Notes: generated by a model not told the origin, from the letters alone. Shown: positions 4,974 through 63,199, counted from the first letter of the stretch. The stretch: DNA of 64,000 nucleotides from an uncultured Clostridia bacterium (GCA_947632025.1 CANRNN010000006.1:72030-136029), one strand, 5' to 3'. Numbers and translations are program-made.

Positions 4974-5029
4974 AAATTCATGCGTTAAAGTTCCAAATGT
5001 TTCAAACGCGCAAAACGAATTATAAGCAC

Positions 5030-5061: not shown

Positions 5062-5111
5062 GTTAGGCAAGAAGCGGGGCGTCGTTTGCCTTAGCCTCTT
5101 GCTTTCTGAAA

Positions 5112-44050: not shown

Positions 44051-44124
44051 AATAAAATGCTCCCGAAGCCGCAAGGTTTTGGGAGTGTTTTTTTATAAAT
44101 AAAATTTACAGAAATTATTTACGA

Positions 44125-44802: not shown

Positions 44803-44992
44803 ATGTATGTTCCTCCATAAATATTGTTTTTCTGACGATTATAATTTCAAACAAATTTAATGTTATTATACCACATTTGAAAAAATCTGTCAATAGTATT
44901 CAGTCATAAAACATATCAAGGCGTTTGCCTTTGTTTTTTACATTATAAGCCTTATTTTTTCAAGTCGGGATAAAATGTTATTTCATCAAAGA

Positions 44993-45652: not shown

Positions 45653-45833
45653 AATATTTCTCCTTGCTCAATTTCTATTTTTACATTATACCATATATTG
45701 TTTCAATTTTCAATACTTTTTCAAAATGTAAAAATTCTACAAAATAACGGTTTTCACACCTTGCCGAACAACCTGCAAACACTCATACCTTTTGATTCCA
45801 CAGGCTGCTTGGATTGTGATAATCAGCCTCTAT

Positions 45834-46484
45834 TCACTTTTGGGATTTAAAATAGTGAACGCCAACTTCCATATCTTCCGGACGCTCCGGTTCGGGCTCT
45901 TTAGCTCCGTTTATTCGTCTTTCATTCCAATTCCCCCATTCTGTTGAATATTCGGTCTGAACATTGCTGTTAATGATATATATCCAGTCCAAACCAAGCT
46001 TTGTTTCATCGTCAGCAGCTGTAACAACACCTACCTTGAACCAATATAATGTTCCTTTATCAGTTGTAACATAAGTATTTGCAGAATATCCGGCGCTTAC
46101 CGTAACTCCGTTTCTTACAGAGCTGTAATCGCCTGATGCCCCGACATGCCGCATCTCAACAACTTTGCCGTCAAGAAAATTTACGAGTATTTCGATATCG
46201 GACATCATATCAAATTTGGTTTTATCATACTCACTGAACATATCAAAAATTGCCCTACTGTCTTTTGTTTCAACAAGTTCCAAAACCTCGTTAAACGTAT
46301 TAACAGCATACTCAAGCGGATATTTGTAAGGATTTGCCTCGTAATTCGCCGAAGCAGCCTCGGAAGCTGCTTCCCTGACCCTCCCAATGACGTCTGAAGC
46401 TAAATCTTTAATGCTTCTGCAGCCCGTCATAAGTAATAACGCCAAAATTGGGCAAGTCAATTTCAAAATCTTCCGTATATGCAA
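45834..46484 (-). CDS. Lipoprotein, DUF5104-like
   Basis: LLMTGC lipobox; VLELVETKDSRAIFDMFS...DETKLGL pattern. Family call is tentative. Confidence 0.65.
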   Translation of the reverse strand: MHIRKILKLTCPILALLLMTGCRSIKDLASDVIGRVREAASEAASANYEANPYKYPLEYAVNTFNEVLELVETKDSRAIFDMFSEYDKTKFDMMSDIEILVNFLDGKVVEMRHVGASGDYSSVRNGVTVSAGYSANTYVTTDKGTLYWFKVGVVTAADDETKLGLDWIYIINSNVQTEYSTEWGNWNERRINGAKEPEPERPEDMEVGVHYFKSQK

Positions 46485-46546
46485 AATTATATCCCCCTAT
46501 CGCCCTGTCCAAAGTATCCATTTAAAACGTCTTTAATTTAAACAAT

Positions 46547-47193
46547 CTAACTAAATGAATTGTAAAACGCATCTTCATTTCCAAATTCACTTTCGTTTGA
46601 AAAAGTTAAACTGCTTCCCAAACATATCACGGTTACTGTGTACCTTGTAAAAGGGATACTCTCTTTACAATAACAGTAAAAATCGTACAGCCATCCTAAA
46701 GATTTGGGGTTAGTACACTCACCATCGTAAATCACAAAACCTACGCCGCCATCGAATTGTGAAATATCCGCTTCAGGATTATTCTTAAAAAAAATTTGTA
46801 ATTGATTTGTATTGTAGCTGAATTTTGCGGTAATATTTCTTGATTCTGTAAACGGCTTGATATAGGTGTCGTAGAGTTGATGTTCCGCAAATGCACTCCG
46901 GTAACTATCAATTGTAATTTTTCCACGCTCAGCGAAAATTGAAAACCTTATCCGTTCAGATCAAAAACAAATTGATCATATCCGTTATTTTCAAAATTGA
47001 TTTTTGTTGTGCCATAGTGAGCCTCTATGAATTTAGCATCGGAGTAATTTGCGTTTATATATTCCAAAGCAGCCTGTTTGTTTTTTCGAGCCTCCTTCTG
47101 CCACGGAAATAAAAGGTTCACGTTGAAAATAGCACAAATTCCGATTGCAGCTGCCAATGACAGTAAAATTTTGATTAAAACCGTTTTCTTCAT
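46547..47193 (-). pseudogene. Frameshifted membrane-anchored hypothetical protein (~215 aa if repaired)
   Basis: ORF 46948-47193 (..FDLNG*) continues in a shifted frame (IRFSIFAERGKITIDSYRSAF..VIYDGECTNPKSLGWLYDFY..FS*) that is open to 46547. Confidence 0.7.
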
Positions 47194-47326
47194 ATGCCCC
47201 CTAATCTCCTATATATTTTAATACAGTGTTCTGCATTTGTGTAAACTTTATAAAAAGATTTTTTTGATCCGTCCCCATAATTAAATTATATCACATTTTT
47301 CAAGACCTGTCAACAACTTAATTTTA

Positions 47327-47423
47327 TTACACTCCAATCTCCATTCTCTGACCCTCGGACTCGCTCAAAGCGATGCTTTTCATATTTTATTGATTTATTA
47401 TCCGCCGGATAAGTATGAATTTA
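47327..47423. repeat. Downstream arm shared with 59822-59860 and 60197-60249
   Basis: TTACACTCC..CATTC.CTGACCCTCGGAC.CGCT and GCGATGCTTT.CATAT.TTATTGATTTA.TAT..GATAA..GAA.TTTA, overlapping the GNAT stop codon. Confidence 0.85.
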
Positions 47424-47864
47424 GATTTTCCGCTTCAGGTAAACCATATCTATCAGTTGCTTACCGCATTCGAATATTGGATGATTATAGTGCTCAACAA
47501 AGAAATTACTGACAATATGTGAGCGAACGAAACCGCAGCTCTCATAAAACGGGATCGTCAGCGGACTATCCCCCGTACCGACCTGTAAAACCGAATACTG
47601 CCCTTTGTACTTTTCCGCAACAAACTCAATCAATGCTTTGCCATACCCCATTCTTTTATATCCGGGTTCTGTTGCTATATTCTTTATCTCCAGAACGCCA
47701 TTTCCCTCATCTGTAACCACGCATTCAGCTTTTGCGCCGTCATTGATAAGAACATACATCGTTCCTCTGTCAAGATAGCTGTCGATCATATTCTCTTGTT
47801 CATCTGCCAATAACAGTAATGCAAGATAGTCTTTTTTATTTGTTTTTATCTCTTCGATCTCCAT
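47421..47864 (-). CDS. GNAT family N-acetyltransferase
   Basis: EIKNIAT.P.Y.RMGYGKALI, GTGDSPLTIPFYESCGF; start 47864. Confidence 0.92.
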   Translation of the reverse strand: MEIEEIKTNKKDYLALLLLADEQENMIDSYLDRGTMYVLINDGAKAECVVTDEGNGVLEIKNIATEPGYKRMGYGKALIEFVAEKYKGQYSVLQVGTGDSPLTIPFYESCGFVRSHIVSNFFVEHYNHPIFECGKQLIDMVYLKRKI

Positions 47865-47910
47865 TTCATACCTCAATAAATCCCGAATTATCGGTGGGCC
47901 TACGCCCTGC

Positions 47911-47985
47911 CCGACTGTATACAATTATACCACATTTTCCCCAAAAAAGCAAGCTCAAACGATTTTCGCATATCAATATTTAGAG
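47911..47985. repeat. Upstream promoter-bearing arm shared with 60744-60819
   Basis: CCGACTGTATACAATTATACCACA(T/C)TTTCCCC(A/G)AAAAAGCAAGC: 42/44 identical; contains minus-strand TTGCTT-17-TATAAT. Confidence 0.9.
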
Positions 47986-48205
47986 TCACGTAGCATTTAG
48001 TCAGCGTTTTCTGCCGTTCTAATAATTTCGTTCGCACGGTCTTTCTCAGGAATTATTGTTATTTCAGACATTTCATCAACTTCTTTCACAACACATTATA
48101 CCGTACAATTCAATAAATGCTTCGCACACGTCTTGGCGCAGTGCTCCTGTCGCTTTCTCCTTGTCAGGCTGCGCAAGGGAAAGTATCTGAAATACTGCTA
48201 TTCAA

Positions 48206-49084
48206 TTGTCAAAGAACATAAGGGGAGAATTTGCCCCTCTACTATATGGAGATTTACTCTTCGTTTTGTACACCCCTTTAGGAGATATTCCCGATGAATA
48301 TTTCGGACGGCTATATAACCTGAAATGGCTTCAGCTTGTGAGCGCGGGCGCGGACAGGATAATTTACGGGAACGCAATTTCCGATAAAACCGTTCTGACA
48401 AACGCTTCCGGTGCATTCGGAGAGGTTATTTCGAAATATGTCATCGGCGGCATTCTTTGCCTATTCCGCGATTTTTTCAGCTATCGTGAAAATCAAATCG
48501 AAAAGCACTGGCATGATACAAAAAACGAACGTATGATCTGCGGCTCGACAGCGTTGATTTTGGGCTGCGGGAATATCGGCAAATGCGTTCCAACTCGTCT
48601 GAGGGCATTCGGAGCAAAAACCGTAGGAGTTCGTCAAAGCCGTAAAAATGCCCTGAATTTGACGAAACATATCCCGTTGAGAAACTTGATATGCTGCTTC
48701 CGGACGCCGACATAATTGTCTGCACCCTGCCGCGGACGCCTTCAACGGAACATTTCTTAAACCGCGAGCGGCTTATGCTGATTAAAAATGACGCGGTTAT
48801 CGTGAACGTCGAGCGCGGAAATGTTATTGACACAAACGCGCTTTGTGAAAGGCTGAAAAGAGGAGAATTGTTCGGCGCGGTGCTTGACGTTTTCGAGAAC
48901 GAACCGCTTGAACATAATTCACCGCTGTGGGATATGAAAAACGTTTTTTGTCACTCTGCATATTTCGGGGAAATCGTTCGGTCATTCTGAAAGAACCGAA
49001 AATCTGATAGCACAGATCTGTGAAGAAAATCTAAGGCGGTTTGTAAACGGAAAACCGCTTGTAAATATAGTTAAACAGAAATAA
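48206..49084 (+). pseudogene. D-2-hydroxyacid dehydrogenase, frameshifted
   Basis: LQLVSAGAD, ILGCGNIG, DIIVCTLP.TPSTEHFL, VNVERG, AVLDVFENEPL, then TLHISG..NLRRFVNGKPLVNIV* across at least three frames. Confidence 0.85.
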
Positions 49085-49132
49085 ATTTGAAATTTGTTTT
49101 TAAGGAGCCCATTTCAGAGGAGGTAAACTACA

Positions 49133-49315
49133 ATGTCAGGAAAACCGTTATCACACGAAGTCACAAAGGAAAACGGCTTCAAAAAGCCCGACCGTGTTGA
49201 CAGACATCCGCGTTCAAACAATAATGAAACTTCGGGATCGGATAACAGATCCTCTAATTATCTGCCTGACCCGAACGATGGATTGCACAAGCCGAAAATC
49301 GTACCATGGAAGTAA
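49133..49315 (+). CDS. Small hydrophilic 60-aa protein, hypothetical
   Basis: Strong GAGGAGGT RBS; MSGKPLSHEVTKENGFKKPDRVDRHPRSNNNETSGSDNRSSNYLPDPNDGLHKPKIVPWK. Confidence 0.65.
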   Translation: MSGKPLSHEVTKENGFKKPDRVDRHPRSNNNETSGSDNRSSNYLPDPNDGLHKPKIVPWK

Positions 49316-49543
49316 ATGATGACAATATATCCGGCGGGCAAAAACACCGTGAAATAATAATTCATCTTGTTTTTTGTTTTGTGAAGAAAGTCAACTCCCG
49401 CTTCCGCAGATATTTTCGTTGAAATGCCCATAAATGCAACTTTCAATTTGAAATAATTCAAAAAAACCACAATAAATTAAGAAATTTTGTGCATAATGCC
49501 CTAAAATTTGCAATTTTATTTTGAAAATCTGTTAAAATAGTGC

Positions 49544-49629
49544 TTGACATAATATTCTCTTTGTGATATAATAAAGGTGTAAAGCAAGGGCGCTTTGGCG
49601 GATCTCCGTCAAGGCGCCCTTTATTTTTT
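49544..49629 (+). promoter_or_regulatory. SigA promoter plus ANTAR-type hairpin overlapping an intrinsic terminator (attenuator)
   Basis: TTGACA(49544-49549)-17-TATAAT(49567-49572); AAAGC-[AAGGGC]-GCTTT hairpin (49581-49596); 16-bp terminator stem 49586-49621 followed by TATTTTTT. Confidence 0.75.
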
Positions 49630-49647
49630 GAAAAGAGATGAATTTTT

Positions 49648-50967
49648 ATGAACACGCCTGTTGCAAACTCAAAGGAAATAAACGAGCTTCTGGCACGCTA
49701 TGGCGTAAAATTCGGGATTTACAAAAACGGAAATTTCCACGAACAGCTTTTCCCGTTTGACGCGATACCCCGCGTTATTTCAGCATCGGATTTCTCTGAG
49801 CTTGAAAAGGGGCTTATTCAGCGCGTCGATGCGCTGAATATGTTTTTGAGGGACGTTTATTCCGACAAGAAGATAATTGCCGACGGGGTCGTTCCCGAAG
49901 ATTTTGTTTACAGCTCAACGGGTTTTTTGCAGCAATGCGACGGGGTGCTGCCGCCAAAGGGCATATACAGTCACATTTCGGGTATTGATTTAGTTCAGGC
50001 AAAGGACGGCGTCTGGTATATTCTTGAGGATAACCTTCGCATACCGTCCGGCGCGTCCTATCCGCTTATAGCGCGCGAGCTTTGCCGAATGACAAGTCCC
50101 GATGTTTTCCGTGAGGCTAAGGTGCGCGACAACAGAAATTATATTGCACTGCTCCGCGAAACGATGAATTATGTAAACTGCGGCGGGATAAACGTTATAT
50201 TGACACCCGGAAGATATAACGCCGCATATTTTGAACATTCCTATTTCGCGGAGAAAACGGGAGCTGCGCTGGTTCAGAATTCCGATTTGTTTGTGGAGGA
50301 CAATATTCTCTATCTTAAGGATTATCAGAACGGAAAAACGCGCGTGGGAGCGGTCTACCGCAGGATCTCGGACGAATATCTCGACCCGCTTACGTTCCTG
50401 CCGGAGTCGCTTATCGGAATTCCGCATATTATGGACGCGTACCGCGCGGGAAATGTCGCGCTGATAAACGCTCCCGGAAACGGCGCTGCCGACGACAAGG
50501 GAATTTACTATTTCGTGCCGAAGATGATAGAGTACTATCTCGGCGAAAAGGCAATTCTGAAAAATGCGCCGACATATCTGCCGTTCTATGAAAACGACAG
50601 GAAGTATGTCCTCGATAACCTTGAAAAGCTGGTTATAAAGGACGTTTCGGAGGCGGGCGGCTACGGCGTTGTGTTCGGCTCGGATATGACCAAAGAGCAG
50701 CTTGCCGACTGGCGAAAGCTGATAACAGAGCAGTCCCGCCGGTTTATCGCGCAGGAGGTGATAGATTTCATTGACCTGCCGATAACGGACGAGCAGGGAA
50801 ATACCACGCTGCACAAAGCGGATCTCAGAGCCTTTGTGCTTTCCGGGGAAACCACAAGGGTATGGTGCAGCGGACTTACAAGATTTTCACGGAATGTTGA
50901 CTCATTTGTAGTCAATTCATCGCAAGGAGGAGGCTTTAAGGATACATGGGTACTATCACAAGAATAA
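49648..50967 (+). CDS. Circularly permuted type-2 ATP-grasp protein
   Basis: QRVDALNMFL.DVY, ISGIDLV, LEDNLRIPSGASY, YRRISDEYLDP, NAPGNGAADDK, GGYG, FIAQE, DLRAF, VVNSSQGGGFKDTWV. Confidence 0.95.
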   Translation: MNTPVANSKEINELLARYGVKFGIYKNGNFHEQLFPFDAIPRVISASDFSELEKGLIQRVDALNMFLRDVYSDKKIIADGVVPEDFVYSSTGFLQQCDGVLPPKGIYSHISGIDLVQAKDGVWYILEDNLRIPSGASYPLIARELCRMTSPDVFREAKVRDNRNYIALLRETMNYVNCGGINVILTPGRYNAAYFEHSYFAEKTGAALVQNSDLFVEDNILYLKDYQNGKTRVGAVYRRISDEYLDPLTFLPESLIGIPHIMDAYRAGNVALINAPGNGAADDKGIYYFVPKMIEYYLGEKAILKNAPTYLPFYENDRKYVLDNLEKLVIKDVSEAGGYGVVFGSDMTKEQLADWRKLITEQSRRFIAQEVIDFIDLPITDEQGNTTLHKADLRAFVLSGETTRVWCSGLTRFSRNVDSFVVNSSQGGGFKDTWVLSQE

Positions 50968-51659
50968 ACATAAACAATCTTTTCTGGCTTGGGAGATATA
51001 CGGAGCGTGTGTTTATAACGCTTAATTCGTTTTTCAGGTTCTCGGACAAAATTATCGAGCAGGGCGGGGAGTTTTACGGGAAATATCTCGAAAACATAAG
51101 CGTGCCGAATATTTACAAAAATTCCGACGACTTTTTCGACCGTTATGTGTTTGACGAAAATGACCCGAATTCTATTTATTCAAATCTTTTACGCGCTTTA
51201 GGAAACGGCATTGTACTTCGCGAGGAAATTAAAACTCCGTCGCTGTCGTATCTGCAAATGGCTGCGGACAGGTTCAAGTCCTGCCGCGGTACGGACAAGA
51301 TACGCTACGACCTGCTGCCCGTCCGCGACGCAATTTACGCGTTCTGGGGGAGCGTCGACAGCAATATGACCGATTTTGACGCGCTGAAAATAATTCACCT
51401 CGGCAAGTCCGTGGAGCATGTTGATATGTCGCTTCGGCTCTCTTTGCCGGAGGAGGAAACCTTTGTCGGGCTTCAGAACCTTGTAAAGCACGTTGAGCGT
51501 TATATCGGGCAAAGCGGCTGTATCATAAACAAAGTGGCTCTTTCGGCTTTGAAAGCCGCACTTGCTGTTCCCGAAAAGCTTGACGAAAACAGAAGCGCGC
51601 TTATCACGAATGTTGAAGAGCTTATAGAGGTGAATTTCCTTGAAACGGTTGCGGTTTGA
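50946..51659 (+). CDS. Alpha-E domain protein (DUF403-like)
   Basis: NLFWLGRYTER, PNSIYSNL..A..N....RE, LGKSVEHVDM.LRL; overlaps the ATP-grasp stop. Confidence 0.9.
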   Translation: MGTITRININNLFWLGRYTERVFITLNSFFRFSDKIIEQGGEFYGKYLENISVPNIYKNSDDFFDRYVFDENDPNSIYSNLLRALGNGIVLREEIKTPSLSYLQMAADRFKSCRGTDKIRYDLLPVRDAIYAFWGSVDSNMTDFDALKIIHLGKSVEHVDMSLRLSLPEEETFVGLQNLVKHVERYIGQSGCIINKVALSALKAALAVPEKLDENRSALITNVEELIEVNFLETVAV

Positions 51660-52419
51660 ATATTCCGCGCGGCTGGAATTTGCGGAAAGCGTGTCGGAGC
51701 ATTGTTTCACGCTGCGCTGTCTGCCCGTATCCGACGGCAGACAGCTTATCCGCGAGCCGCAGTATGAAATTTTTCCGCTTGAAAACAGCAAAATATGGCT
51801 TAGTCGCGACAGTTTCGGGAACACTTTGCTTTGCGGAAGAATTCCCGATCCGCACAACATTTTTTCGTTTCACGTTTCGGGGAAAGCCGAGATAATAAAC
51901 ACGCGGGATATTTCCGGGTTTCCCGCGGCGATTTACGGGTACAGCTCTCCGCTTGCAAAGCCGGGGGATTTTATCCGAAAATTTTACAGCGAAAACACCC
52001 CGACGGCAGAATTGCCGATTGACCGCGCAATGGAGCTTTGCAACGCGCTTTATAACTCGATGAAATACGAAAAGGGAGTTACAAACGTGCATACCGCGGC
52101 TGAGGACGCTTTGAAACTCGGCGCGGGCGTTTGTCAGGACTATGCGCATATTTTTTTAGCGCTTTGCAGGCTGGACGGAATCCGGTGCAGATACGTTTCG
52201 GGTCTGGCATTTGAAAGCGGGGAAACTCACGCCTGGACGGAAGTCGGCAGCGGCTCTCGGTGGTACGGCGTTGACCCCGCAAACAACAGATTTATCGGCG
52301 AAAATTATATAAAACTCTGCCACGGCAGAGATTATTCCGATTGCCCGATAGAATGCGGGATCTATCTCGGAAATTCTTCGGGCGTTCAGACGGTAACGTC
52401 GTCTGTTGCCGAATTTTAA
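51640..52419 (+). CDS. Transglutaminase-like protein with Bact_transglu_N domain
   Basis: GVCQDYAHIF (Cys), HAW (His), GVDPAN (Asp) triad; GRDYSDC. Confidence 0.93.
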   Translation: MKRLRFEYSARLEFAESVSEHCFTLRCLPVSDGRQLIREPQYEIFPLENSKIWLSRDSFGNTLLCGRIPDPHNIFSFHVSGKAEIINTRDISGFPAAIYGYSSPLAKPGDFIRKFYSENTPTAELPIDRAMELCNALYNSMKYEKGVTNVHTAAEDALKLGAGVCQDYAHIFLALCRLDGIRCRYVSGLAFESGETHAWTEVGSGSRWYGVDPANNRFIGENYIKLCHGRDYSDCPIECGIYLGNSSGVQTVTSSVAEF

Positions 52420-52431
52420 GGGAGTGGAATT

Positions 52432-53376
52432 ATGATAGAAGCGGTCACACGGGCGGGACTTGCGGTAAACGAAAATATAGTTATAAAGAAAAACCGTATA
52501 GTCGGCTCTGACAATAAAAATCCTTCCGGAAAAAGAGTTTGTATCGTCACGGGAACGCACGGCGACGAGCTTGAAGGGCAATATGTCTGCGCGAAACTGT
52601 CAAACGTTCTGCAAAATAATTTGACGCTGTTAAACGGGACGGTTGATATTTATCCCGCGCTTAATCCCTTGGGGGTTGATTCAATTACGCGCGGAATACC
52701 TCTGTTTGACCTCGATATGAACCGCATTTTCCCCGGAAGCGCGGACGGCACTATGGCGGAGTGCCTTGCCGCAGACATAATCGCCGATATAAGCGGCGCG
52801 GATATCTGTATAGATATTCATTCGAGCAACATTTATTTGAGAGAAATTCCGCAGGTGCGGATAAACGAAATTACCGCCGACGAGCTTATTCCTTATGCAA
52901 AAATGCTGGGGTGTGATTTTATCTGGGTTCACGCGTCGGCAACGGTCCTTGAATCCACGCTTGCATACAGCTTGAACAGCATCGGCACGAAAACGCTTGT
53001 CGTGGAAATGGGCGTCGGAATGAGGATCACCTGCGAATACGGCGACAGACTGACGGAGGGGATCTTAAATCTTCTCAAAAATCTCGGAATGTGGAAAGGC
53101 GACTGCAAGCCCGTAAAAGAGCCGATTGTGTCCGCGGACAGAGCGGTGGAATTTGTAAATTCGGGAGCGGCGGGGATATTTATTCCGACTGCAAAGCACT
53201 GGTCGAACGTTAAATGCGGCGATGCCGTGGGGAGCGTTATTGACCCCGTCACGGGCAACGTCGAGGAATATGTGACTTCTCCCTGCGACGGGATAATTTT
53301 CACGCTTCGTGAGTTTCCGATAGTGTACGGCGGGTCGCTTATTGCGAGAATTTTAGGGGGTGACGAAAATGCGTAA
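52432..53376 (+). CDS. M14 succinylglutamate desuccinylase/aspartoacylase-family peptidase (catalytic residues intact)
   Basis: GTHGDE, NPLG, DMNRIFPG, DIHSS, VEMG; C-terminal barrel-sandwich region. Confidence 0.9.
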   Translation: MIEAVTRAGLAVNENIVIKKNRIVGSDNKNPSGKRVCIVTGTHGDELEGQYVCAKLSNVLQNNLTLLNGTVDIYPALNPLGVDSITRGIPLFDLDMNRIFPGSADGTMAECLAADIIADISGADICIDIHSSNIYLREIPQVRINEITADELIPYAKMLGCDFIWVHASATVLESTLAYSLNSIGTKTLVVEMGVGMRITCEYGDRLTEGILNLLKNLGMWKGDCKPVKEPIVSADRAVEFVNSGAAGIFIPTAKHWSNVKCGDAVGSVIDPVTGNVEEYVTSPCDGIIFTLREFPIVYGGSLIARILGGDENA

Positions 53377-54295
53377 AAAGACGTTGTATTCCCTGAAATC
53401 CCCCTACCGTGAGAGTATGGATATAATCGGTTTTCAGTTTGGTCACGGCGAGAAATCAATGTGCGTTATCGGCGCTATGCGCGGCAATGAAGTCCAGCAG
53501 ATGTATGTCTGCTCACAGCTTGTAAACCGCCTAAAATGCCTTGAAAGCGAGGGGCTGATTGCCGAAAACCGCGAGATTATGATAATCCCGTCCGCTAACT
53601 ATTATTCCATGAATATCGGAAAACGTTTCTGGACAATGGACAACACGGATATAAACCGAATGTTTCCCGGTTACGACCTTGGGGAAACCACACAGCGAAT
53701 TGCCGCGGGAATTTTCGAGAGCATTAAAGGCTATAAATACGGCGTTCAGCTTGCGAGTTTTTATCAGCAGGGCGATTTTCTGCCGCACGTCAAACTTATG
53801 GAAACAGGCTTTACCGACCACGAGCTTATGAAATGTTTCGGGCTGCCGTTTGCGTTTATCCGAAAGCCTCGTCCTTATGATACTACAACCTTGAATTATA
53901 ACTGGCAGATTTGGGAAACACAGGCGTTTTCGCTTTACACAAACGCCACCGATAACATTGACGAACCGTCCGCAAAACTTGCGGTAGACGCGATCTTAAG
54001 GTTTATGGCGGCGAACGGCGTTATAAAAACAAAAGTCCCCGGAGGATACATTACCGAAATGTTGGACGAAAAATCTCTCGTGCAGATACATTCGCCTGCC
54101 GCGGGGATTTATAAGAGTTTTGTCCGCACCGGCGACGAATTCAGAAAGGGCGACGTTTTGTGCGAGATAACCGACCCCTTGGACGGGAGCGTTATCCGTA
54201 AAATTTCCGCGCCTTCGGACGGAATTGTTTTCTTTCGATATAATCGTCCGCTGGAGTTTGAAAAAACCGTACTGTATAAAATTATACCTATTTAA
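53369..54295 (+). CDS. M14 desuccinylase/aspartoacylase-family paralog, probably inactive
   Basis: GAMRGNE, DINRMFPG, GVQLAS and FSLYT where the paralog has H..E, DIH and VEMG. Confidence 0.85.
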   Translation: MRKKTLYSLKSPYRESMDIIGFQFGHGEKSMCVIGAMRGNEVQQMYVCSQLVNRLKCLESEGLIAENREIMIIPSANYYSMNIGKRFWTMDNTDINRMFPGYDLGETTQRIAAGIFESIKGYKYGVQLASFYQQGDFLPHVKLMETGFTDHELMKCFGLPFAFIRKPRPYDTTTLNYNWQIWETQAFSLYTNATDNIDEPSAKLAVDAILRFMAANGVIKTKVPGGYITEMLDEKSLVQIHSPAAGIYKSFVRTGDEFRKGDVLCEITDPLDGSVIRKISAPSDGIVFFRYNRPLEFEKTVLYKIIPI

Positions 54296-54485
54296 TTAAG
54301 TAAAAACAGCAAACAGGCTGTAATTTGACTTTATGTACAAGCTGGGTATTATCATTGCAGACGGACGTGGCAATTGTCGCGGCTCTGGGATTTGATAATA
54401 TATAAATAAAAGTTATGAACAGCACGGCAAAACGCAACGTTAAAATGCCTTTGCAAAGGAATTTCTTCTAAGTCGAACGAAAACA

Positions 54486-54515
54486 AAACGTCCCGCAGGA
54501 GCCTGCGGGACGTTT
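54486..54515. terminator. Strong inverted repeat, likely bidirectional terminator
   Basis: AAACGTCCCGCAGG-ag-CCTGCGGGACGTTT. Confidence 0.75.
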
Positions 54516-54960
54516 CAATGCAAGGCATTGTCCTGCCGTGTAACTTTTACAAAAAATATTTGTTGATGTTTTGTATCTCGTAATAATAAAATAACACATT
54601 TTCAAGATTTGTCAATACCATAAAATTAAAATATGATAGCTATAAAATATCGGGTGTAATACATTCAAAAATAAACATTTTTACAACTAATCTCAATATG
54701 ATGAAATTTGTAGGCATTTCAAATCGGAATTTTGGGGTTCATATTTCATTCTTTTTGATTATTATCCGAATTTTTAGTTGTTTTAATTTTAGTGTCCATT
54801 TTGAAATAAAGAATACCTTGCCTGCAGAATCGCCTGTAAAAGGAATTATAGCAAAACGCCTGTCGCTTTCAGAGTTGAGTGGGGACAGATTGCGACAGGT
54901 GTTCACAACGAATCAGCAGTTGTCAAAACCATATGTTTCAAATTATAATAATTAATTCAC

Positions 54961-57900
54961 TCAATTAAAGTTTAATTCTCTGCGAAGTTGTTGTATAGTT
55001 TTAAATGTAATTTCTTTATTATTGCTCAAGTAACTTTTTCTTTTGGAATCTGCCCAATATGAATCAGGAATTTTAATCAATAATTCCTTAATATCATGTA
55101 TTCCAGGAACAGCAACGATTTCAAAATCCTCAGTATATAGAATGCTCCACCCACTTATAGCGCCATTATAGTAATCAGGGTAAATATCCTTTAGCGATTC
55201 TACATATTCTTGCTGTTCTGTTGTTAAATTTGATGTGATAAAAGCATAAATCAGATACGACCTATCATATGACAATCTTCTATTAAATGGAACAAAATTA
55301 TAATATTTTCCGTTCAATAAATCCCTTATACGATATTCGTTTGGATGATAACGAGAGTACATGATATTTCCAAATATACTTAGCGAGTCAACTTCATATA
55401 AAAATCTAATATCGTTGTCGTTAATTTTCCCTTTGATAATATTACCTTTGACAAAGGACTTATTGTTTTCAGCAAGCAGGTTGAAAAAATCGGTATTTAC
55501 CATCGGTAGTAGTGAATTCACAACATTGTAGTGATGATAATCAGTTTGTGAAAATCTGCCTTTCTGTAAACCATACTAGTATAGTCGTCAAATCTGTTTC
55601 TAATTATTTGTTCTTCAATTTTGAACTTTGGTGAATATAGAACAACCTCATTTTGACGCAATACAATTTCTTCCGATGACGCTATTTTATTAGCAACAAT
55701 AACCTTAAAGAACGGCGTTGACATTAAGTAATTTATATTTGTTTTGATGATGATATTTTCCACTGTAAGAAAATCCGACAATGAAATATTGCTGCAAATA
55801 TTATCGGATAAATCGCTCCAGAAAATATTTTGCGGTTTGCGTCCCAGATAGTATGCAATGTAATCCCAAAGAAATCTCCTCGACGTAAAATAGTAGGTCC
55901 ACATTATGTCGGATATATGGGATTTGTATTCATTCGGAACAGTTTCTAAATATTCGCAAATACAGTGTATTTCATTATCAACGACCTTAAAAAATAACAT
56001 CTCTGTTTCATCTACAAGCTGCGTTGGAACGCTTATTATATTTCTGTGGTCGATACTCAATTTCGGACGCACTTCTCCTATAAAATTCAACGTAAAATCT
56101 GTGTCGTAGTTGGTGGGTAATTTCATATTTCGGCTTAACTGCACAGTTATGCCGTCAATTAAAAAACCCGATTTATGAAACTCTAAAATCCGATAAAAAA
56201 GCAAACTTTCGGCGTTTATCGGCTTGGAATAATCTTTAGGAAAGTATAAAATGTTGCGGTATTGCAGGTTTTGGGTGTCTACAAAAATTTCTTTTCTTAC
56301 AACATTGTCTTCAGATAGGGAATTAATGATGCTGCTGAAATCATGATATTGGTATGAATATTTTTCTGCAACTTTTTTGCATGTCATATCTATCAATTTG
56401 ATTGTATTCAGATTTATAAAAAAGTAAGAGCCGCTTTTATACGAAGCCTTATATTTGGAACATTCTCCGGTACATCTTGAAAATATATTGATGCTTGGAG
56501 GACAAAGCTTAATGTATCTTGTCAGTATCGTGAGAAAATACTTTTTCTCTTGTTGATTAATTTTATAATTTCTTTCAGAGCCTTCTTCGTATAAAGAATA
56601 CATATCTAAAAACAATTCCCATTCCTTACAGTGGGTACTTCGTTCGGATGTTGACTGATACATAAGTATATCGTTTAATGTTTTCTTATTTGGTATTTCA
56701 TCAGAAATATTATCATCTTTTAAGAATAATTTGACAATTGTACCCGAATTTTTAAGGCGTTCAGCGTCGTCAAAAAGAGGGGTTGAAAAATATAAGTATT
56801 CTTTTTTCCCGTCTAAAGTTAGGCAAATGACATCGGAATTATTTTTTTTGGTTGTTATCTCTATTAAATCGCATAACATAAAGCACGACAAAATGCCTAT
56901 TCCGAATTGTGAAATAGGGTAAAATTTTTTGGAAGATTCCGCGCGCATTTGATAAAAATCGGCAGAAGAATAGAAGGTATGTCCTATATGTAAAAGGTAG
57001 TTCGTTATTATTGACTTATCCATTCCAATACCGTTATCATAACAATATAAATATTTTCGTTCTTTACCATGTTTAGTGCATACATCAATTCCAAATTCAA
57101 TATTCCCAATAAAGTCAGGCAAATTTAATTGTTTACACCAGCATGCGTCAAGAGAATTTTGATATAATTCTCGAATACAAGCATATTTGTCTTTATATAA
57201 TTCTTCGCTCATCAGCAAATCAATAATGTTGGATTGATCCATTTTTATACATAAATCATCAGCCGGAATAAACTCTTTAGAACAAGACGTAACCCCTTTA
57301 GCATTGATTTTGTTGTTTATATTAAGTCCAAGCTGGTTGAGCCTATTGCATTTTTGCAGATTTAATAATTCGCCTTCAACATATTTAATATAGTCTTTTA
57401 AGAAGTAATACTCTTCCGGATTTTCACAAGGAGAATATGCATTTATTACAACATTACCCCCATTGTTGTTTATTACAAAATTAAACCCTGTAAGTTTAGA
57501 ACTCAGTGAATATTGTTATTTGTCCCTTTTTCATAGCTTAATGAATAAGATACTCTGTCCGACCCGAAATGAAGTGCGTCTGCAACTCTTAACATTGCAG
57601 CGACAAACAATAAATCAGCTTTTTCGTTTTCAAAATATTTTCCTGAAAGCTTCTGAATTTCATTTTGTGCTTCATCAAAATTTATGCCGTGAGAAAAGCA
57701 TAATTCCCCAAAAATTTGAGAAAACAATTTGCTGTAATTATGCAATTTTTCCCTGTCAAATTTTTTCTAAATTTATGCAGTAAATTCTGCTTAATTTGGC
57801 ATGATTTGCTCTTATATATTCTTTGCGAATTTGCGTGTTGATTTTATCAGCATTTGTATCAGACAATTTGTTTTTTAACTGCGGAAGCCTGCCGCTACGA

Positions 57901-58478
57901 TATTTGTGATAATCTATAGCGAGCATGGCTAAATGCTCTGTAAACATTCCTTCGTTCTGAAATCCAAAGATAAGATGCTGTTCATATCTATTTGAACTTA
58001 AAAGATTTCCATATAATTTTGTTTTAAAATTATTTATATATCCCTCCATCCATTTCTGCGTTATTTTTCCTTTTCCATCCAAACCGAACTTAGGCACAGA
58101 TAAATTTTCATCTTTGCCTTCGCAAGCAATCAATACGTTTAATTCCCTGTTCTGATATTGCCATGCTGCAGTCATGTAATAATGCGGTCATATACAGAAA
58201 AAAAGCTCCATAGTAGAGAGCTGCGCTATTTTATCGCCCAAAATCTTTTCCATGTTCATTAATACAGATCGGCTATGATCTATATTATGCGAGTCAAACT
58301 CCGGGGAAAAGCGGCAAATTTGTTGTAAATGATTAATTACATCCGGTTCAATTCTACCTATAAAATCGATCAATTCTTTTACATTGCTGTTATTTGTACT
58401 TCTGAATTTCAATTCATCAATAATTTTACCTTCCATAATGTCCTCCATAAAACAGAAATTATCGCATATATTATCCAA
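54961..58478 (-). pseudogene. HD-domain (HD-CE-like) + Hsp90/HtpG-like GHKL ATPase fusion, ~1170 aa if repaired
   Basis: Fragments in order: PEFDSHNIDHSRSV; LLHDCSM (58176-58171, a frame absent from the track); YIRANH; CFSH..LRVADALH; SPCENPEEYYFLKDY in frame with IRELYQNSLDAC, DNGIGM, ISQFGIGILSCF, GTIVKL; C-terminal piece 54961-55521. Confidence 0.8.
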
Positions 58479-58488
58479 TAAGCCATAG

Positions 58489-59543
58489 TTATAATTTTAC
58501 TATTGCCTGACCAATTATTTTCATAAGTGCTTTTCTATTTTCTATAACAACATTCTTTCGTTCGTTAGAAAGGTCAAATGGATATTTATGCAAAAAATTA
58601 TCAGAAACCACATGTAAATATGAGAATTTTATGTTTGTATTTTGTGCTGCGTAAGCCATATGACCTATCTCTGGATCAACAAAAGAGTATTCTTGACATG
58701 AATCCTCAACCCATTGTTTCGTTTCTTGTAAAACAGATGGAAGCGTTAAATGCTTTCCAAATCTAATATGCTCGTTTGAAGCTGTATCAAACATATTATT
58801 TCATGTAACAATTTCTCCATTTGGAAGAAGACTTACATTTCCTGTTGCAATAATTTCGTTAGGTACATATGAAGAATTAAGCGTTCCAAGTTTTCCGGAA
58901 TATATTATTTGTTTTACTCCAATCGAGGATAAAAAAAGAAATAATTCTACCAGCAATTTCACCCCAATAAGTATGTTTACATCCAAGTAATATTGCATTT
59001 CCCGACTTAATCTTTATTTGTTTGTATAAAAAATTTCCTCTTCCTTTCCATTCTTTATCATCTGATAGGAAATCAAGCCCTTCAACATAGCCCATTAAAA
59101 CTTATCAACTTTAGGAATATCGTTAAGTGAAGAGTTACAAATTTCATTCCAACATTGTTCCTCACTTGGTATTTCGCTTATAATATGGATATCTTTTTTA
59201 ACAGACTTGAAAAAGTAGAATAAATATTGCTATAATGATAAATATAATCAATTCCTGGGAAACACCTTATCTCTGCCTTATCGTCTATGATTTGTACTGT
59301 AGGCCTCATAAAATTAAAAAACTTCCCACCCTTTTCGTTTTCTGAGATACCGTTACTCCTATCAAAACATCCAAACACTCTTATTTGACTGATTTTTTGA
59401 AAATTTATAGAAGAATTTATTTTCATTTCTAAATATGACAATAATGAATTTCCCATAGAATGTATTTCTGCTGACATTTTAAGTGGAAAAAAATAATTAT
59501 TGTTATAGGGCAAAGGGTAAGCATACATATACAGCATCTCCAA
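58489..59543 (-). pseudogene. Nucleoside phosphorylase (PNP_UDP)-fold protein, fragmented (~350 aa if repaired)
   Basis: Fragments: ILLGCKHTYWGEIAG; IIYSGKLGTLN..PNEIIATG; HLTLPSVLQET..FVDPEIGHMA.AA...YLHVVSDN; frameshifts plus an in-frame TGA at 58803-58801. Confidence 0.72.
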
Positions 59544-59821
59544 TTTTTAATATGTTTAGACCTAATCAAATTTGATATTCATTATAAAGATATGATAATA
59601 TATACAATTATCCTTCGCTATCATTTATAACTATTATATCACACAATTCCCTAAAAGTCAACAAAAAAATTAAGGCTTTGCGCAAGATGTAAAAATCCTG
59701 CGAAAATGCAAAATTTGTTTGTGGAATTAGCTAATTTTCAAGCATATTTTTGTGCAATTTCACAAATGAGAGCTTTCGCGATTCCAACCCTTGTGATCTG
59801 TACTGCAGCAAACCCATTGAC

Positions 59822-59860
59822 TTACACTCCCATCGTCATTCCCTGACCCTCGGACCCGCT
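59822..59860. repeat. Downstream arm, distal part (homologous to 47327-47365)
   Basis: TTACACTCC..CATTCCCTGACCCTCGGACCCGCT; minus frame encodes ..SEGQGMTMGV*. Confidence 0.8.
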
Positions 59861-60196
59861 TTCATCCTCATTGAGATCCTCATCACATCGACTTCCTCGG
59901 TTTCTTCCTCAGACACGCTCACAGCGGCTGATTCGCGCTGTTCCTTTTCAGTCGATTGAATTAACAGCAGCTCATAAAGCTACAGAGAAATTTCTATCTT
60001 CAAATTATCGCTCCTCTCCCATATTTATTTGAATGTTAGATCCTTTAACCTGTATTGATATGCGTTTTTTTGTTGTTTGCAACAATTTGTCCAATAATCT
60101 TTCCATGCTGCTGTATCGTCATATTTCACCAACTTGAAATCCTATTGTTCAAGAGCTGCTACACCTGCAAAATTGCATGAAAAAGCACCGCTTAGT

Positions 60197-60249
60197 GCGA
60201 TGCTTTCATATGTTATTGATTTACTATTTGCTTGATAAATGGAAATTTA
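60197..60249. repeat. Downstream arm, proximal part (homologous to 47370-47423)
   Basis: GCGATGCTTTCATATGTTATTGATTTACTAT..GATAAATGGAAATTTA, includes the GNAT stop codon. Confidence 0.8.
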
Positions 60250-60702
60250 TGCTTTTTCCATATATACAAATTGAAGCTCATCATTGATTACTTTGATATC
60301 AAAAATTTTATATCCTAAACTTTGATATAAACGAATATTATCTTTGCTTCTCGTGCTTGTAAAAAGCTCATATCGCTTATCTGGGAAGTATTCTTCTATT
60401 TTTTTAATTAGCCTTGTGCCATAACCATTGTGTCTGTAGTTAGGGTGAACCATTAGTTTTCCAATGTATACTGTTCCCTTAGCTTCTTTTGCACGGACTG
60501 AACCAATGATAGTATTTTCATCATTATACATTTTGAGTATAACACCATTATTATATTCGTCTACTACCTCATCCAGTGTTTGCTTTAGCGGTGGAATATC
60601 CCTCCCAAAGAGTGCTGCTTCGCTTTGATAGGAAAAATATTGAAGTTGTAATATTTCCTGCAAATCATCAATGTTCGCTTGACATATCTTCAATATAAAC
60701 AT
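60247..60702 (-). CDS. GNAT family N-acetyltransferase
   Basis: YIGKLMVHPNYRHNGYGTRLI, NIRLYQSLGY; start 60702 or TTG 60693. Confidence 0.92.
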   Translation of the reverse strand: MFILKICQANIDDLQEILQLQYFSYQSEAALFGRDIPPLKQTLDEVVDEYNNGVILKMYNDENTIIGSVRAKEAKGTVYIGKLMVHPNYRHNGYGTRLIKKIEEYFPDKRYELFTSTRSKDNIRLYQSLGYKIFDIKVINDELQFVYMEKA

Positions 60703-60743
60703 CCCCCTCCAAAATTCAATTTGTAGGTCAGTCTTAAACGTAA

Positions 60744-60819
60744 CCGACTGTATACAATTATACCACACTTTCCCCGAAAAAGCAAGCCCGAAAGAAACTT
60801 CAACTATCAATATTTCGAG
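60744..60819. repeat. Upstream promoter-bearing arm (homologous to 47911-47985)
   Basis: 42/44 identity over the first 44 nt, plus a shared TATCAATATTT.GAG tail. Confidence 0.9.
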
Positions 60820-60866
60820 CAGTATTTAATTGTAAAAGTGTGACAAAAAACTTCCGCTTAAAATAT

Positions 60867-61505
60867 TTATCTTATTTTTTGAATTTTCCCCTTTTCCATT
60901 TCATAAACACAGTCGCACAGAACGTCAATATCTTCCGAAGAATGGGAAGCGACTATAATCGTTTTCCCTTGTTCCTTTAATTCCAGAAGATATTTTCTCA
61001 TATCAAGCACGCCTTCTTTGTCCAAACCGTTCATAGGTTCATCGAGAATTAGAATATCCGGATCCTCCATAATCGCTTGAGCAAGCCCCAAACGCTGGCG
61101 CATTCCAAGCGAAAATTTGCCGACGTGCTTTTTATCATCGGGGTCCAGTCCGACTTGTTTTATCGCCGCGCGGACTTCACTTTTTCCAATTTTTCGTCGT
61201 ATTCTCGCAAGCTGCATTAAATTATTGTATGCAGAAAAATTTGGTAAGAATCCCGGATTTTCAATGATAACTCCAATATTATCGGGAATATCAATTTCCT
61301 TTCCGACCTGTTTTCCGCGCACAAAAACATTTCCCGAAGTTGGAGATACAAGTCCAAGAATACATTTCATCAGCACCGTTTTCCCGCTGCCGTTCCTGCC
61401 GATAAGTCCTGTTACCGAACATGGTTCAATTTCCAATGAAACATTATTCAATACTATATTATCGCGAAACTTTTTAGTAACATTTTCCAATTTAATAATG
61501 CTCAT
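60867..61505 (-). CDS. ABC transporter ATP-binding protein
   Basis: GRNGSGKT, FSLGMRQRLGLAQA, LILDEP. Confidence 0.96.
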   Translation of the reverse strand: MSIIKLENVTKKFRDNIVLNNVSLEIEPCSVTGLIGRNGSGKTVLMKCILGLVSPTSGNVFVRGKQVGKEIDIPDNIGVIIENPGFLPNFSAYNNLMQLARIRRKIGKSEVRAAIKQVGLDPDDKKHVGKFSLGMRQRLGLAQAIMEDPDILILDEPMNGLDKEGVLDMRKYLLELKEQGKTIIVASHSSEDIDVLCDCVYEMEKGKIQKIR

Positions 61506-61514
61506 TTTATCACC

Positions 61515-62357
61515 TCAACGAATATTCAAATCAGATTTTTTACGAGAGCAAATTGCCGTAATAATTGCTGAAATTAAAAACAGACAAACAAGCACCATTA
61601 TAACGACAACGGGCGACGCTCCCTCAGAGCTTTTCGGAGTAAATCCCGCCCATTCGATAATTACAAAATTTTTATACCATTGGAGAGCAACAAATCCTTT
61701 GAAAAGATACAGCGAAATGAGAATTATTCCTGTCACAGTTCCGCAATAACCTCCGCGTGAAATTGAATTTAACGATAATATAAGATTCCCGAAAACGAAC
61801 ATCAACAGCACTCCGACAGGAATGCTCCACGTCAGCGCCTCATACGGCGAAACTGCTTTTAATGCAGCGTCGGATACGCTTGCGGAAACATTGTATTCCG
61901 TAAGTGCAGGAGAAAAATTTGCTGCATTTTTGTGAATAATTCCCCATGAATTTTTGAAATTCAATTTGCCGATCAAAGGAATTATTGAAAACAGCGAAAT
62001 AATTAAAATCAATAAAATCGAAACACAAAAAACATACATTATCTGACTTAAATACCACGCGCGTTTTCCTCCGCGAATAACAAGGAAAGTCTGCTGCGTA
62101 TCTTTGAAAGGCAATTCCGAAAAAATAAAAAGCAATGAAATAAATATTTTTAATATTGAATAGTATTCCGAAAAATTATACGCGATAATTCCTATGCTGA
62201 TAGTTTCGCCAAACGCATATGCCGAACGCACAAACGGCATTATCAATGAAAAAACGGATGACAGGATCAGTAAAATCCCCGCCCAGACTTTCGGACTGTT
62301 CAGCGCGTACAGTAAGTGCCGCCGTGCCATTCCCCATGCGTAAAAAAGTGTTTTCAT
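61515..62357 (-). CDS. ABC-2 type permease-like membrane protein
   Basis: Six TM; ELPF.D.QQTFLVIRGGKRAW. Confidence 0.8.
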   Translation of the reverse strand: MKTLFYAWGMARRHLLYALNSPKVWAGILLILSSVFSLIMPFVRSAYAFGETISIGIIAYNFSEYYSILKIFISLLFIFSELPFKDTQQTFLVIRGGKRAWYLSQIMYVFCVSILLILIISLFSIIPLIGKLNFKNSWGIIHKNAANFSPALTEYNVSASVSDAALKAVSPYEALTWSIPVGVLLMFVFGNLILSLNSISRGGYCGTVTGIILISLYLFKGFVALQWYKNFVIIEWAGFTPKSSEGASPVVVIMVLVCLFLISAIITAICSRKKSDLNIR

Positions 62358-62365
62358 TGCTCCTC

Positions 62366-63199
62366 CTAATTTACGTCAGAACTCCTTGCATATTTTCGCT
62401 CGATTAGAAAATATGCGGTGACAATTATTATCACAAGGCAAACTGCAGAATAAATAAACGGGTAAAGTGTTGAAAATAAATTCATTCCCGCTCCCGTCGG
62501 ATCGCCGAATTGCGTATAGGGAGCATTTGTTTGACTGAACGCAAATTTTGGCATTATAAAAACAGGCAAGGGGATTATGCCCGCAATTATCCAGACAAGC
62601 TCTAAAATTACAAGCGGTGTTACCATTGCGATATAGGGGTTTGTGACCCATACGGAAACCAGTGCGGCAAACGCCGAAAATGTCCCCATATAACACGCGT
62701 TCACCATAAACGCCAGCGCGTAATATCCCAAAACATTTCCTTTTACAAGCAATTCTCCGCCTGTTTTCATCAACATCAAATAAATATATCCACCTTCGTT
62801 GTCGGCGGGAATTGTAAACGAATTATTAAACGATAATATGACAGTAAAAATTGAAAGCCCAATTACAGCTACTAAAGCTGAAATTGCAAATGTTGACAAA
62901 ATAGTTGACGCGGCGTAATTGAATTTTCCGGTTCTCTGATAGATATAAACAAATCGTCCGCTGCGCCAATCCTCAGAGAACAAAACTGCCGATGGTATAG
63001 CGCATATCACAAGCAAAAAGCTGTCGCTGTCAAACATCAGTGTATCGCCAATTATAAGTGCTATGCAATCATTAGTATGCACTAAATAACGGCTCATACA
63101 AAAAAGCATTAAAAAATAAAGCCCTGCCGAGATCCAGAATCTAGCGGTGCGAAGAGCGTAAAAAACATTTACACCGATCGCCGAAAATAGCCTCACCAT
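62366..63199 (-). CDS. ABC-2 type permease-like membrane protein
   Basis: Six TM; FSEDWRSGRFVYIYQRTG. Confidence 0.8.
   Translation of the reverse strand: MVRLFSAIGVNVFYALRTARFWISAGLYFLMLFCMSRYLVHTNDCIALIIGDTLMFDSDSFLLVICAIPSAVLFSEDWRSGRFVYIYQRTGKFNYAASTILSTFAISALVAVIGLSIFTVILSFNNSFTIPADNEGGYIYLMLMKTGGELLVKGNVLGYYALAFMVNACYMGTFSAFAALVSVWVTNPYIAMVTPLVILELVWIIAGIIPLPVFIMPKFAFSQTNAPYTQFGDPTGAGMNLFSTLYPFIYSAVCLVIIIVTAYFLIERKYARSSDVN

Follow-up and report, generated by a model that had tools for sequence, protein, structure and literature searches.

The stretch of DNA described here, 64,000 nucleotides long and called the window throughout, is part of one contig (C6:72030-136029) of the 2.36-Mb, 31-contig genome of an uncultured Clostridia bacterium, labelled G000. 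Two genes for GNAT acetyltransferases lie in it about 13 kb apart, both on the reverse strand (Table 1). Each is enclosed by an upstream arm with a predicted promoter (P arm) and a downstream arm with all or part of a predicted terminator (T arm), and at each junction stands a 14-bp palindrome, designated the P-site at the start and the T-site at the end of the enclosed gene, or cargo. A first-pass annotation, made from the sequence of the window alone, had noted two dissimilar GNAT genes embedded in common flanking arms. This description holds: the two proteins are 27% identical over 90 aa, both match GNAT families of Pfam, and their P and T arms match. Both cassettes sit in horizontally acquired islands. 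We refer to them as A and B, and to three further copies elsewhere in G000 as C (on contig C16), D and E (both on C18); all five are of what we call type I. Contigs with related loci from ENA, NCBI and Logan are given L-numbers, and genomes of species of the genus G-numbers.

Anatomy of the cassettes

The core of the upstream arms is identical at 42 of 44 positions (95.5%; 47911-47954 against 60744-60787, blastn-short), as had been noticed at first, and the arms of A and B, some 115–140 nt in full length, can be aligned over about 75 nt. Both contain the TTGCTT-17-TATAAT promoter originally read there, and its −10 element additionally bears the TRTG extension of Gram-positive promoters (TGTGGTATAAT). 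A consensus promoter scan missed this promoter because its −35 element agrees with the consensus at only 3 of 6 positions. In cassette A, the −10 element is followed by a 5′ untranslated region (UTR) of about 45 nt; in cassette B, the P arm lacks some of its upstream part, the truncation lying about 50 nt from an ABC-transporter gene. Both downstream arms start at the stop codon itself (TAAATT...), and their lengths, 62 nt in A and 81 nt in B, agree with the initial estimate of about 50–100 nt. The T arm of B consists of the T-site, a spacer and a predicted intrinsic terminator, and ends in the motif AATTTTG (terminator scan). Since the T arm of A ends within the terminator loop, the strand of A is left without an intact terminator. 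The start of GNAT A as called was confirmed by exact protein look-up. GNAT B, which we call from a TTG codon, has an alternative ATG start at 60702, and a variant of it (93% identical) occurs together with its arms in two independent Logan assemblies (L062 and L063).

Searches of G000 with both arms, using blastn-short and nhmmer profiles, returned exactly five P arms and five T arms, spread over three contigs; the next matches had E ≥ 0.04, and for the P-arm profile the next non-cassette match had E = 0.04 (nhmmer). The additional copies enclose a NUDIX hydrolase (C), a nitroreductase (D) and a third GNAT (E), so that the five cargos represent three protein folds (GNAT three times, NUDIX and nitroreductase), each cargo being single-copy in G000. 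Their matches to NCBIfam all fall far below cut-off, and they can be named to superfamily only. Type I cassettes are also carried by the ENA contigs L042 and L064 and by the Logan contigs L062 and L063.

The membership of A, B and E in one superfamily, GNAT, would suit plain duplication and divergence of one GNAT locus. However, the arms enclose NUDIX and nitroreductase folds as well, and the three GNATs are only 24–30% identical to one another while the arms are 81–96% identical. The arms are therefore not confined to GNATs, the GNATs are not close paralogs, and simple duplication does not account for the copies. An artefact of assembly is contradicted by the recurrence of the cassettes in independent ENA, NCBI and Logan assemblies. 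We regard both explanations as very improbable.

In all copies, arm similarity ends just 5′ of the ribosome-binding site (RBS) and restarts 0–13 nt past the stop codon. The cargo limits lie 0–20 nt from the start codon and 0–13 nt from the stop codon, and different open reading frames (ORFs) are slotted into one frame, as the first-pass annotation had proposed. Towards the outside, arm similarity has ragged limits, the truncation points of B, C and E being different, which argues against a transposon-like unit with fixed outer ends. We read the layout as a P arm (weak −35, TRTG-extended −10, 5′ UTR of about 45 nt), P-site, RBS-ORF-stop, T-site, spacer and putative intrinsic terminator. Since the arms would supply both the start and the stop of transcription, any RBS-plus-ORF unit placed between the sites would be expressed autonomously, in the manner of a phage moron.

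No consensus structure emerged for the 5′ UTRs, whose single-sequence z-scores ran from −1.7 to +0.9, and structure was rejected as evidence. Pairing of the P-site with the T-site in the RNA is not supported either: it was no better within than between cassettes (permutation p = 0.09), and it showed neither covariation nor a sense-strand bias (187 vs 179 pairs). Rfam models gave nothing at gathering score on the cassette regions. Below threshold, the Streptococcus small RNA SpF25 matched 60175-60252 (−) with 24 bits and L023:3643-3742 (+) with 31 bits (gathering score 48); the aligned part is mainly the terminator hairpin of the T arms. The GC content of the window is 30–40% at 44000-49500 and 54500-64000, against about 50–55% in flanking core genes.

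The junction palindrome and cargo outside the arms

When all cassettes are aligned, YAAATC-GG-RATTTR is seen to close every P arm, immediately before the RBS, and TAAATY-CC/CT-RATTTA, then TC, to open every T arm. The two sites are the same 6-2-6 quasi-palindrome in inverted orientation (class YAAATY-NN-RATTTR). This class of 14-mer occurs 27 times in G000, compared with 4.1 expected genome-wide from a third-order Markov model (6.6-fold enrichment), and at least 20 of the 27 lie immediately before an RBS or immediately after a stop codon. The palindrome also bounds cargo in two more arm families of G000, types II and III, which have unrelated promoters; in all, at least nine palindrome-bounded single-gene units with such other promoter arms lie outside the window (Table 1). 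The type III promoter arms all follow a stretch of about 80 nt that corresponds to the 3′ end of a C5 DNA methyltransferase gene (protein end ...GNAVTTNVIEAMAGG, then stop). The source of this platform therefore seems to have been the region 3′ of a dcm-like gene in a different mobile element. In the window, a solitary T-site-like sequence, AAATTCCGATTTG, occurs at 54709-54728 (−), about 230 nt 3′ of a 186-aa ORF that belongs to a low-GC block (54961-59661); no partner P-site was seen there.

Cargo also occurs outside the arms. The nitroreductase of cassette D is a member of a 339-member cluster at 90% identity, and on seven contigs an armless copy stands between response-regulator and histidine-kinase genes, with 87% DNA identity to D from −20 to stop+10. 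An armless NUDIX gene lies 3′ of a YitT-family gene in GCA_947630755.1 and is 86% identical to C from −19 to the stop codon, the homology beginning at the centre of the P-site. As the homology of the armless copies ends at the cassette boundaries, the shared item is the RBS-to-stop unit. Cargo E and a GNAT of G112 (90% protein identity) are similar from the P-site to the end of the T arm (AATTTTG), and their upstream promoters are unrelated. The armless nitroreductase, on contigs L031-L037 (4231-6770), is about 90% protein-identical to cargo D, and the position of its gene between the regulator and kinase genes, upstream of an ABC/FtsX transporter, is odd. This gene is preceded by a P-site-like sequence, TAAATTGTAATTTG, and for this reason may itself be an inserted promoterless cassette.

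In a survey of 100 other species of the genus by profile and covariance-model searches, diverged arms with further cargos were found in at least six (Table 1). Arms are more similar within a genome than across genomes; the terminator stem reads GCATCGC/GCGGTGC in G000 and CCCGCC/GGCGGG in G112. At the G033 locus (L088, which is G033:C357 on the reverse strand, ~1355-1574), a P-site, CAAATCGTAATTTG, lies directly 3′ of a LacI-family gene; next come 125 nt that contain no ORF, and then a T arm. This slot is near-empty or decayed, and it is the best candidate for an unoccupied platform. Both cassettes of G112 (L074, on G112:C3, and L075, on G112:C2) are followed by convergent radC-like genes sharing extended downstream homology, and both lie beside defence loci, with DUF262-type genes in one case and type I-C CRISPR-Cas in the other. 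Two comparisons between genomes were discarded. At the SWIM-gene locus of G000 and G002 the upstream DNA is unrelated and no empty site can be defined, and the flavin-reductase-like genes that might have marked one locus with different cargo in G002 and G112 are 43% identical, their orthology not being established.

What the palindrome does can be read in more than one way. A palindromic motif between promoter and RBS is in a common position for a repressor, and the sites could serve as operators for a dimeric transcription factor whose regulon would consist of small detoxification-type enzymes; the arms would then be duplicated regulatory DNA, and the sharp boundaries would come from selection keeping the operator beside the RBS rather than from recombination. 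The motif does occur before ordinary-looking genes (a chorismate-mutase-like gene between two aldo-keto reductase genes, and a PhzF-like gene), and in function the cargos are much of a kind (GNAT, VOC/glyoxalase, nitroreductase, NUDIX and metallo-β-lactamase (MBL)-fold proteins). However, an operator leaves unexplained the second site, directly past the stop codon and before the terminator, as well as the unrelated ORFs between near-identical arms and the ending of armless-copy homology at the sites. No candidate regulator was identified, and we consider this explanation improbable.

Alternatively, the palindromes could be recombination sites at which a dimeric recombinase, possibly a serine recombinase acting at the central dinucleotide (GG at the P-site, CC/CT at the T-site), exchanges RBS-ORF units between any two site-bearing platforms; this would amount to recombinase-mediated cassette exchange with an integron-like outcome. 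Such a system would predict what is seen at the inner boundaries, which are sharp at the sites for at least 15 cargos, drawn from several species and from three or more unrelated arm families. Where one cargo can be compared in two contexts (NUDIX C with L038, GNAT E with G112), the breakpoint falls at the P-site or inside it, and both the location of the enriched palindrome at gene boundaries and the nearly empty slot of G033 point the same way. Yet a conserved core of 14 bp is short for the known sites of serine or tyrosine recombinases. The T-site 15-mer has exact matches in 11 of 150 genomes of the class, against none for the reversed control, and in the other families of the class it lies mostly inside coding DNA. 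Inverted sites within one molecule, moreover, would give inversion, yet all of the roughly 20 cargos are in sense orientation, although selection for expression could explain this. We think a site-specific system possible but rather unlikely.

Recombinase relics around the cassettes

Intact relatives of the backbone in which the type I cassettes lie were reached by a homologue search with a 195-aa protein encoded downstream of cassette E. Their order is a non-coding block, a first large serine recombinase (LSR) gene (LSR1, ~504 aa), a gene for a 167-aa recombinase-domain protein, LSR3 (533–554 aa), a 44-aa gene, a 191-aa ribbon-helix-helix (RHH) gene (PF10723 in homologues) and the right end. 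This end reads ...TCTTTTTTGTAA, and the DNA beyond it differs between two samples with the same element. The left block, the start of LSR1, the end of LSR3, the 44-aa and 191-aa genes and the right end all align between cassette loci and intact elements. At the position held by the cassettes in G000, the intact elements L025, L026 and L029 carry LSR1, the 167-aa recombinase and LSR3.

The P arm of A starts where the LSR1 remnant breaks off, at LSR1 codon ~20, and the same junction is found in cassette D and L063; in E the P arm begins at about LSR3 codon 77–96. On the other side, the T arm of D abuts the region upstream of LSR3, and those of B, E and L063 abut the final ~145 nt of LSR3 itself; A and C have half a T arm, which runs into the 3′ end of the 191-aa gene. 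The layout is complete in contig L063, which has in order the LSR1 N-terminus, P arm, GNAT-B′ (the variant of GNAT B), T arm and LSR3 C-terminus. The right end beside cassette A (within 47248-47366) matches an end point beyond which the DNA of L025 and that of L026 differ. All that is left of LSR genes at the cassette loci of G000 are 20-codon and 96-codon N-terminal and ~45-codon C-terminal fragments, and the genome holds no intact recombinase of the backbone family. The first-pass annotation had stated that no recombinase is in the window; this stands for intact genes, but LSR remnants adjoin both cassettes.

As these alignments read, the type I platform in G000 is a recombinase-less relic of a triple-LSR integrative element. 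Triplets of large serine recombinases have been described for integrative and conjugative elements of the Tn5252/Tn1806 type. Like other triple-LSR elements, the family considered here has three tandem Resolvase/Recombinase/Zn_ribbon_recom genes, then small RHH genes and a defined right end. Unlike them, it has had its recombinase genes replaced by cassettes in G000, where relics alone persist, and no conjugation genes are linked. The location of the type I cassettes inside relics of serine-recombinase genes would suit a site-specific system. However, no recombinase genes or relics flank the cassettes of G002 and G112, and G000 has lost its own. The relic with cassette A is adjoined at its outer end by a gene for a D-isomer-specific 2-hydroxyacid dehydrogenase (48206-48990, +), which is broken into two frames of 169 aa and 99 aa and looks like a pseudogene.

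Table 1 Features of the cassettes in the window (positions without contig label) and of related units in G000 and other species (contig coordinates)
Feature	Position	Strand	Evidence or remarks
Conserved non-coding block, upstream of LSR1 in intact element	48113-48217	−	85% to L026 1036-1142; 100% over 52 nt to L029 1333-1384
LSR1 remnant, first ~20 codons (MSEITIIPEKDRANEIIRTAE...)	48012-48071	−	Translation; 75% to L026 1796-1894 / L029 2194-2294 (span LSR1 start)
P arm of A	47871-48010	−	nhmmer E=4e-30; blastn-short; alignments
Predicted −35 of A, TTGCTT	47947-47952	−	17-nt spacer to −10
Predicted −10 of A, TATAAT	47924-47929	−	
P-site of A, TAATTCGGGATTTA, 14-bp quasi-palindrome	47877-47890	−	Immediately 5′ of RBS (GAGG); read from sequence
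Cargo A, GNAT acetyltransferase, 147 aa (MEIEEIK...)	47421-47864	−	Pfam PF13508 / PF00583; exact protein on record P0121
T-site of A, TAAATTCATACTTA, overlaps stop codon	47410-47423	−	
T arm of A, 62 nt	47361-47423	−	nhmmer E=5e-13; alignment; terminator scan
Last ~40 nt of 191-aa RHH gene, TTGACA-17-TATAAT promoter, element right end (...TCTTTTTATAA, end)	47248-47366	−	85% to L029 6537-6667
P arm of B	60705-60819	−	nhmmer E=4e-25; alignments
Predicted −35 of B, TTGCTT	60780-60785	−	
Predicted −10 of B, TATAAT	60757-60762	−	
P-site of B, CAAATTGAATTTTG	60710-60723	−	Immediately 5′ of RBS (GGAGG); sequence and alignment
Cargo B, GNAT acetyltransferase, 148 aa from TTG start	60247-60693	−	Pfam PF00583; 148-aa form on record P0122
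T-site of B, TAAATTTCCATTTA	60236-60249	−	
T arm of B, ~81 nt	60168-60249	−	nhmmer E=6e-21; covariance model R3 98 bits; terminator scan
Predicted intrinsic terminator in T arm of B	60185-60198	−	Terminator scan
LSR3 remnant, last ~40 codons	60042-60153	−	78% to L026 5340-5448; translation; same junction in cassette E, L063
Decayed pieces of 191-aa RHH gene	59822-59943	−	77-88% to L025-L029
Cassette C, NUDIX hydrolase, 158 aa	C16:~1090-1761		
Cassette D, nitroreductase, 197 aa	C18:21461-22269		
Cassette E, third GNAT, 157 aa	C18:22571-23248		
Type II cargo, 239-aa unknown protein	C21		
Type II cargo, VOC/glyoxalase	C6:14.8-15.5 kb		
Type III cargos: 155-aa protein; 136-aa protein; MBL-fold 254-aa protein			
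Methyltransferase 3′ ends upstream of type III arms	C18:31500-31580; C6:~142900; C3:~5800-5880		
Single palindrome-bounded cases: RimJ-like GNAT; chorismate-mutase-like gene between two aldo-keto reductase genes; 120-aa protein, three copies			
Palindrome-bounded units with other promoter arms (types II and III); cargos include a VOC/glyoxalase, an MBL-fold hydrolase, a RimJ-like GNAT, a chorismate-mutase-like protein, several unknowns	C21:19900-20722; C6:14810-15515; C18:27623-28160; C18:31500-32263; C6:~141800-142351; C3:~4900-5788; C24:9452-10017; C9:115435-115750; C16:3223		
Two cassettes: fourth GNAT type; lipoprotein	G002		
Two cassettes: 125-aa unknown protein beside CRISPR-Cas; GNAT	G112		GNAT 90% identical to cargo E
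E-like pseudogene	G018		
120-aa protein	G071		
P-site, 125 nt without ORF, T-site	G033		Near-empty slot
Cassette	G023		Weaker case

Proposed cargo exchange and comparison with known systems

We favour, as the probable though by no means secure explanation, that these units are exchangeable single-gene expression cassettes whose cargo is traded when arms recombine, mostly through crossovers at the junction palindromes. The type I platform would have arisen in a small three-LSR integrative element, a cassette replacing the recombinase genes, and all five G000 copies would now be immobile relics of such elements. Platforms would swap cargo through recombination in their conserved arms, crossovers falling mostly at the two palindromes, as the promoter-early stem-loops (PeSLs) of phages do. 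Movement of cargo between platforms is suggested by the shared arms round unrelated ORFs, by the same cargo appearing with another promoter or without arms, and by mosaic arms. Thus, cassettes A and C agree in the P arm (95%), in the type of 5′ UTR and in a rare distal junction, while their cargo and proximal T arm differ, and the proximal T arm of C is 96% identical to that of B, as recombination inside the arms would give.

Several points weigh against exchange through the arms. No exchange event was caught, and neither an empty platform nor a strain pair differing only in cargo was found. Homologous recombination in the arms does not explain the first tight-bounded capture of an RBS-to-stop unit. 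Apart from the 14-bp sites, arm families I, II and III have little in common, and exchange among them would require a site-specific or microhomology step. The activities of promoter and terminator are predictions. Type I arms are also rare, and their exact core is absent from all public collections scanned. The exact 22-mer of the arm gave only two chance promoter matches among 185,579 species (one genome per species), and no type I arm core was found in 400 genomes of the order with up to 3 mismatches. IMG/VR held neither arm pattern, JGI metagenomes did not contain the T-arm pattern, and plasmids and phages returned coding matches only, to a GNAT and to recombinases (blastn). Because arm recombination explains neither the first capture nor a site common to unrelated arms, the site-specific alternative is the main rival explanation.

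If that alternative were true, the cassettes would constitute an undescribed site-specific gene-cassette system of Clostridia, in which promoterless RBS-ORF units would pass between resident promoter/terminator platforms on mobile-element relics and in the chromosome, a functional equivalent of integrons in a phylum where complete integrons have not been found. Accessory genes are freely exchanged among Gram-positive gut and rumen bacteria, and how single genes are slotted into working expression contexts there is poorly understood; here one architecture (P arm, palindrome, small gene, palindrome, T arm) is repeated with at least 15 cargos in one genus. Acetyltransferases, nitroreductases, glyoxalase-type, MBL-fold and NUDIX proteins often modify drugs and xenobiotics, so that the platform could matter for the spread of such traits. 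The origin of ORF-tight cassette boundaries is open for integrons as well, and the palindrome cassettes provide a second case for study. A limited literature search found no paper on promoter- and terminator-armed, palindrome-bounded cassettes of Clostridia.

The first-pass annotation had likened the arrangement to integron cassettes, a likeness that extends to behaviour but not to machinery. As in integrons and in clusters of attC sites lacking integron-integrases (CALINs), ORF-tight single-gene cassettes carry similar cargo (acetyltransferases and glyoxalase-type proteins), an imperfect-palindromic element comes right after each ORF, and the same cargo occurs in several contexts. Firmicutes genomes were without complete integrons in a 2016 survey (PMC4889954). 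The best score for the IntI model TIGR02249 in the whole G000 genome is 76 bits against a cut-off of 265, and ordinary tyrosine recombinases in 14 of 14 control genomes also match this model below cut-off; an IntI-type integrase is not required for a CALIN. No Rfam attC model matched the cassette regions at E ≤ 1. The attC core is GTTRRRY (R''-L''...L'-R'), whereas the junction motif of G000 is YAAATY-NN-RATTTR, and integrons express an array from one Pc promoter, whereas the G000 cassettes are dispersed, each with its own promoter and terminator arm.

The dif modules of the Acinetobacter type, which are acted on by XerC/XerD, have 28-bp sites of 11-6-11 structure, whereas the G000 sites are 6-2-6 with AAATC/GATTT half-sites, and no dif-like XerD arm is visible in the cassette alignments. 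In the GNAT/RHH type II toxin–antitoxin systems (TacAT, AtaRT), the GNAT toxin is co-transcribed with an upstream DUF1778/RHH antitoxin. The cassettes have no ORF between promoter and GNAT, and the same arms also carry NUDIX and nitroreductase cargo. The RHH genes nearby are part of the element backbone and occur in it whether or not a cassette is there.

Phage morons, a concept of Hendrix and colleagues, are independent promoter-ORF-terminator units inserted in a mobile element. The cassettes resemble them as autonomous transcription units in a mobile-element backbone, with a GC content of 34–38% compared with about 50–55% in the host core. Different morons, however, have neither promoter and terminator sequences nor junction sites in common. 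The minimal mobile elements of Neisseria, reportedly described by Saunders and Snyder in 2002, likewise place alternative cargo between conserved flanks and move it by homologous recombination with no dedicated recombinase; their flanks are housekeeping genes at one locus, whereas those in G000 are short non-coding expression signals at many loci.

The PeSLs of T4-like phages are promoter-terminator motifs through which ORFs are shuffled (Arbiol et al. 2010, PMC2839356; Comeau et al. 2014, PMC4122927). In both systems a conserved sigma-70-type promoter and a terminator stem-loop enclose ORFs that are diverse and for the most part small and non-essential; round five different ORFs, the type I arms are conserved at 81–96%, and they include the extended −10 and the scanned terminator. 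A PeSL, however, is one composite terminator-promoter unit between ORFs in hyperplastic regions of lytic phages, whereas the arms of G000 are separate: D and E, the one tandem pair, have about 350 nt of recombinase-gene remnant between a T arm and the P arm that follows it. The G000 cassettes are also dispersed in a bacterial chromosome or in integrative-element relics rather than in phages, and they have an extra 14-bp palindrome at both cargo junctions. Recombination at PeSLs makes indels, replacements and mini-circles, the last of which have been demonstrated experimentally (PMC2839356, PMC4122927); the mosaic arms of A, C and B are consistent with recombination of this kind.

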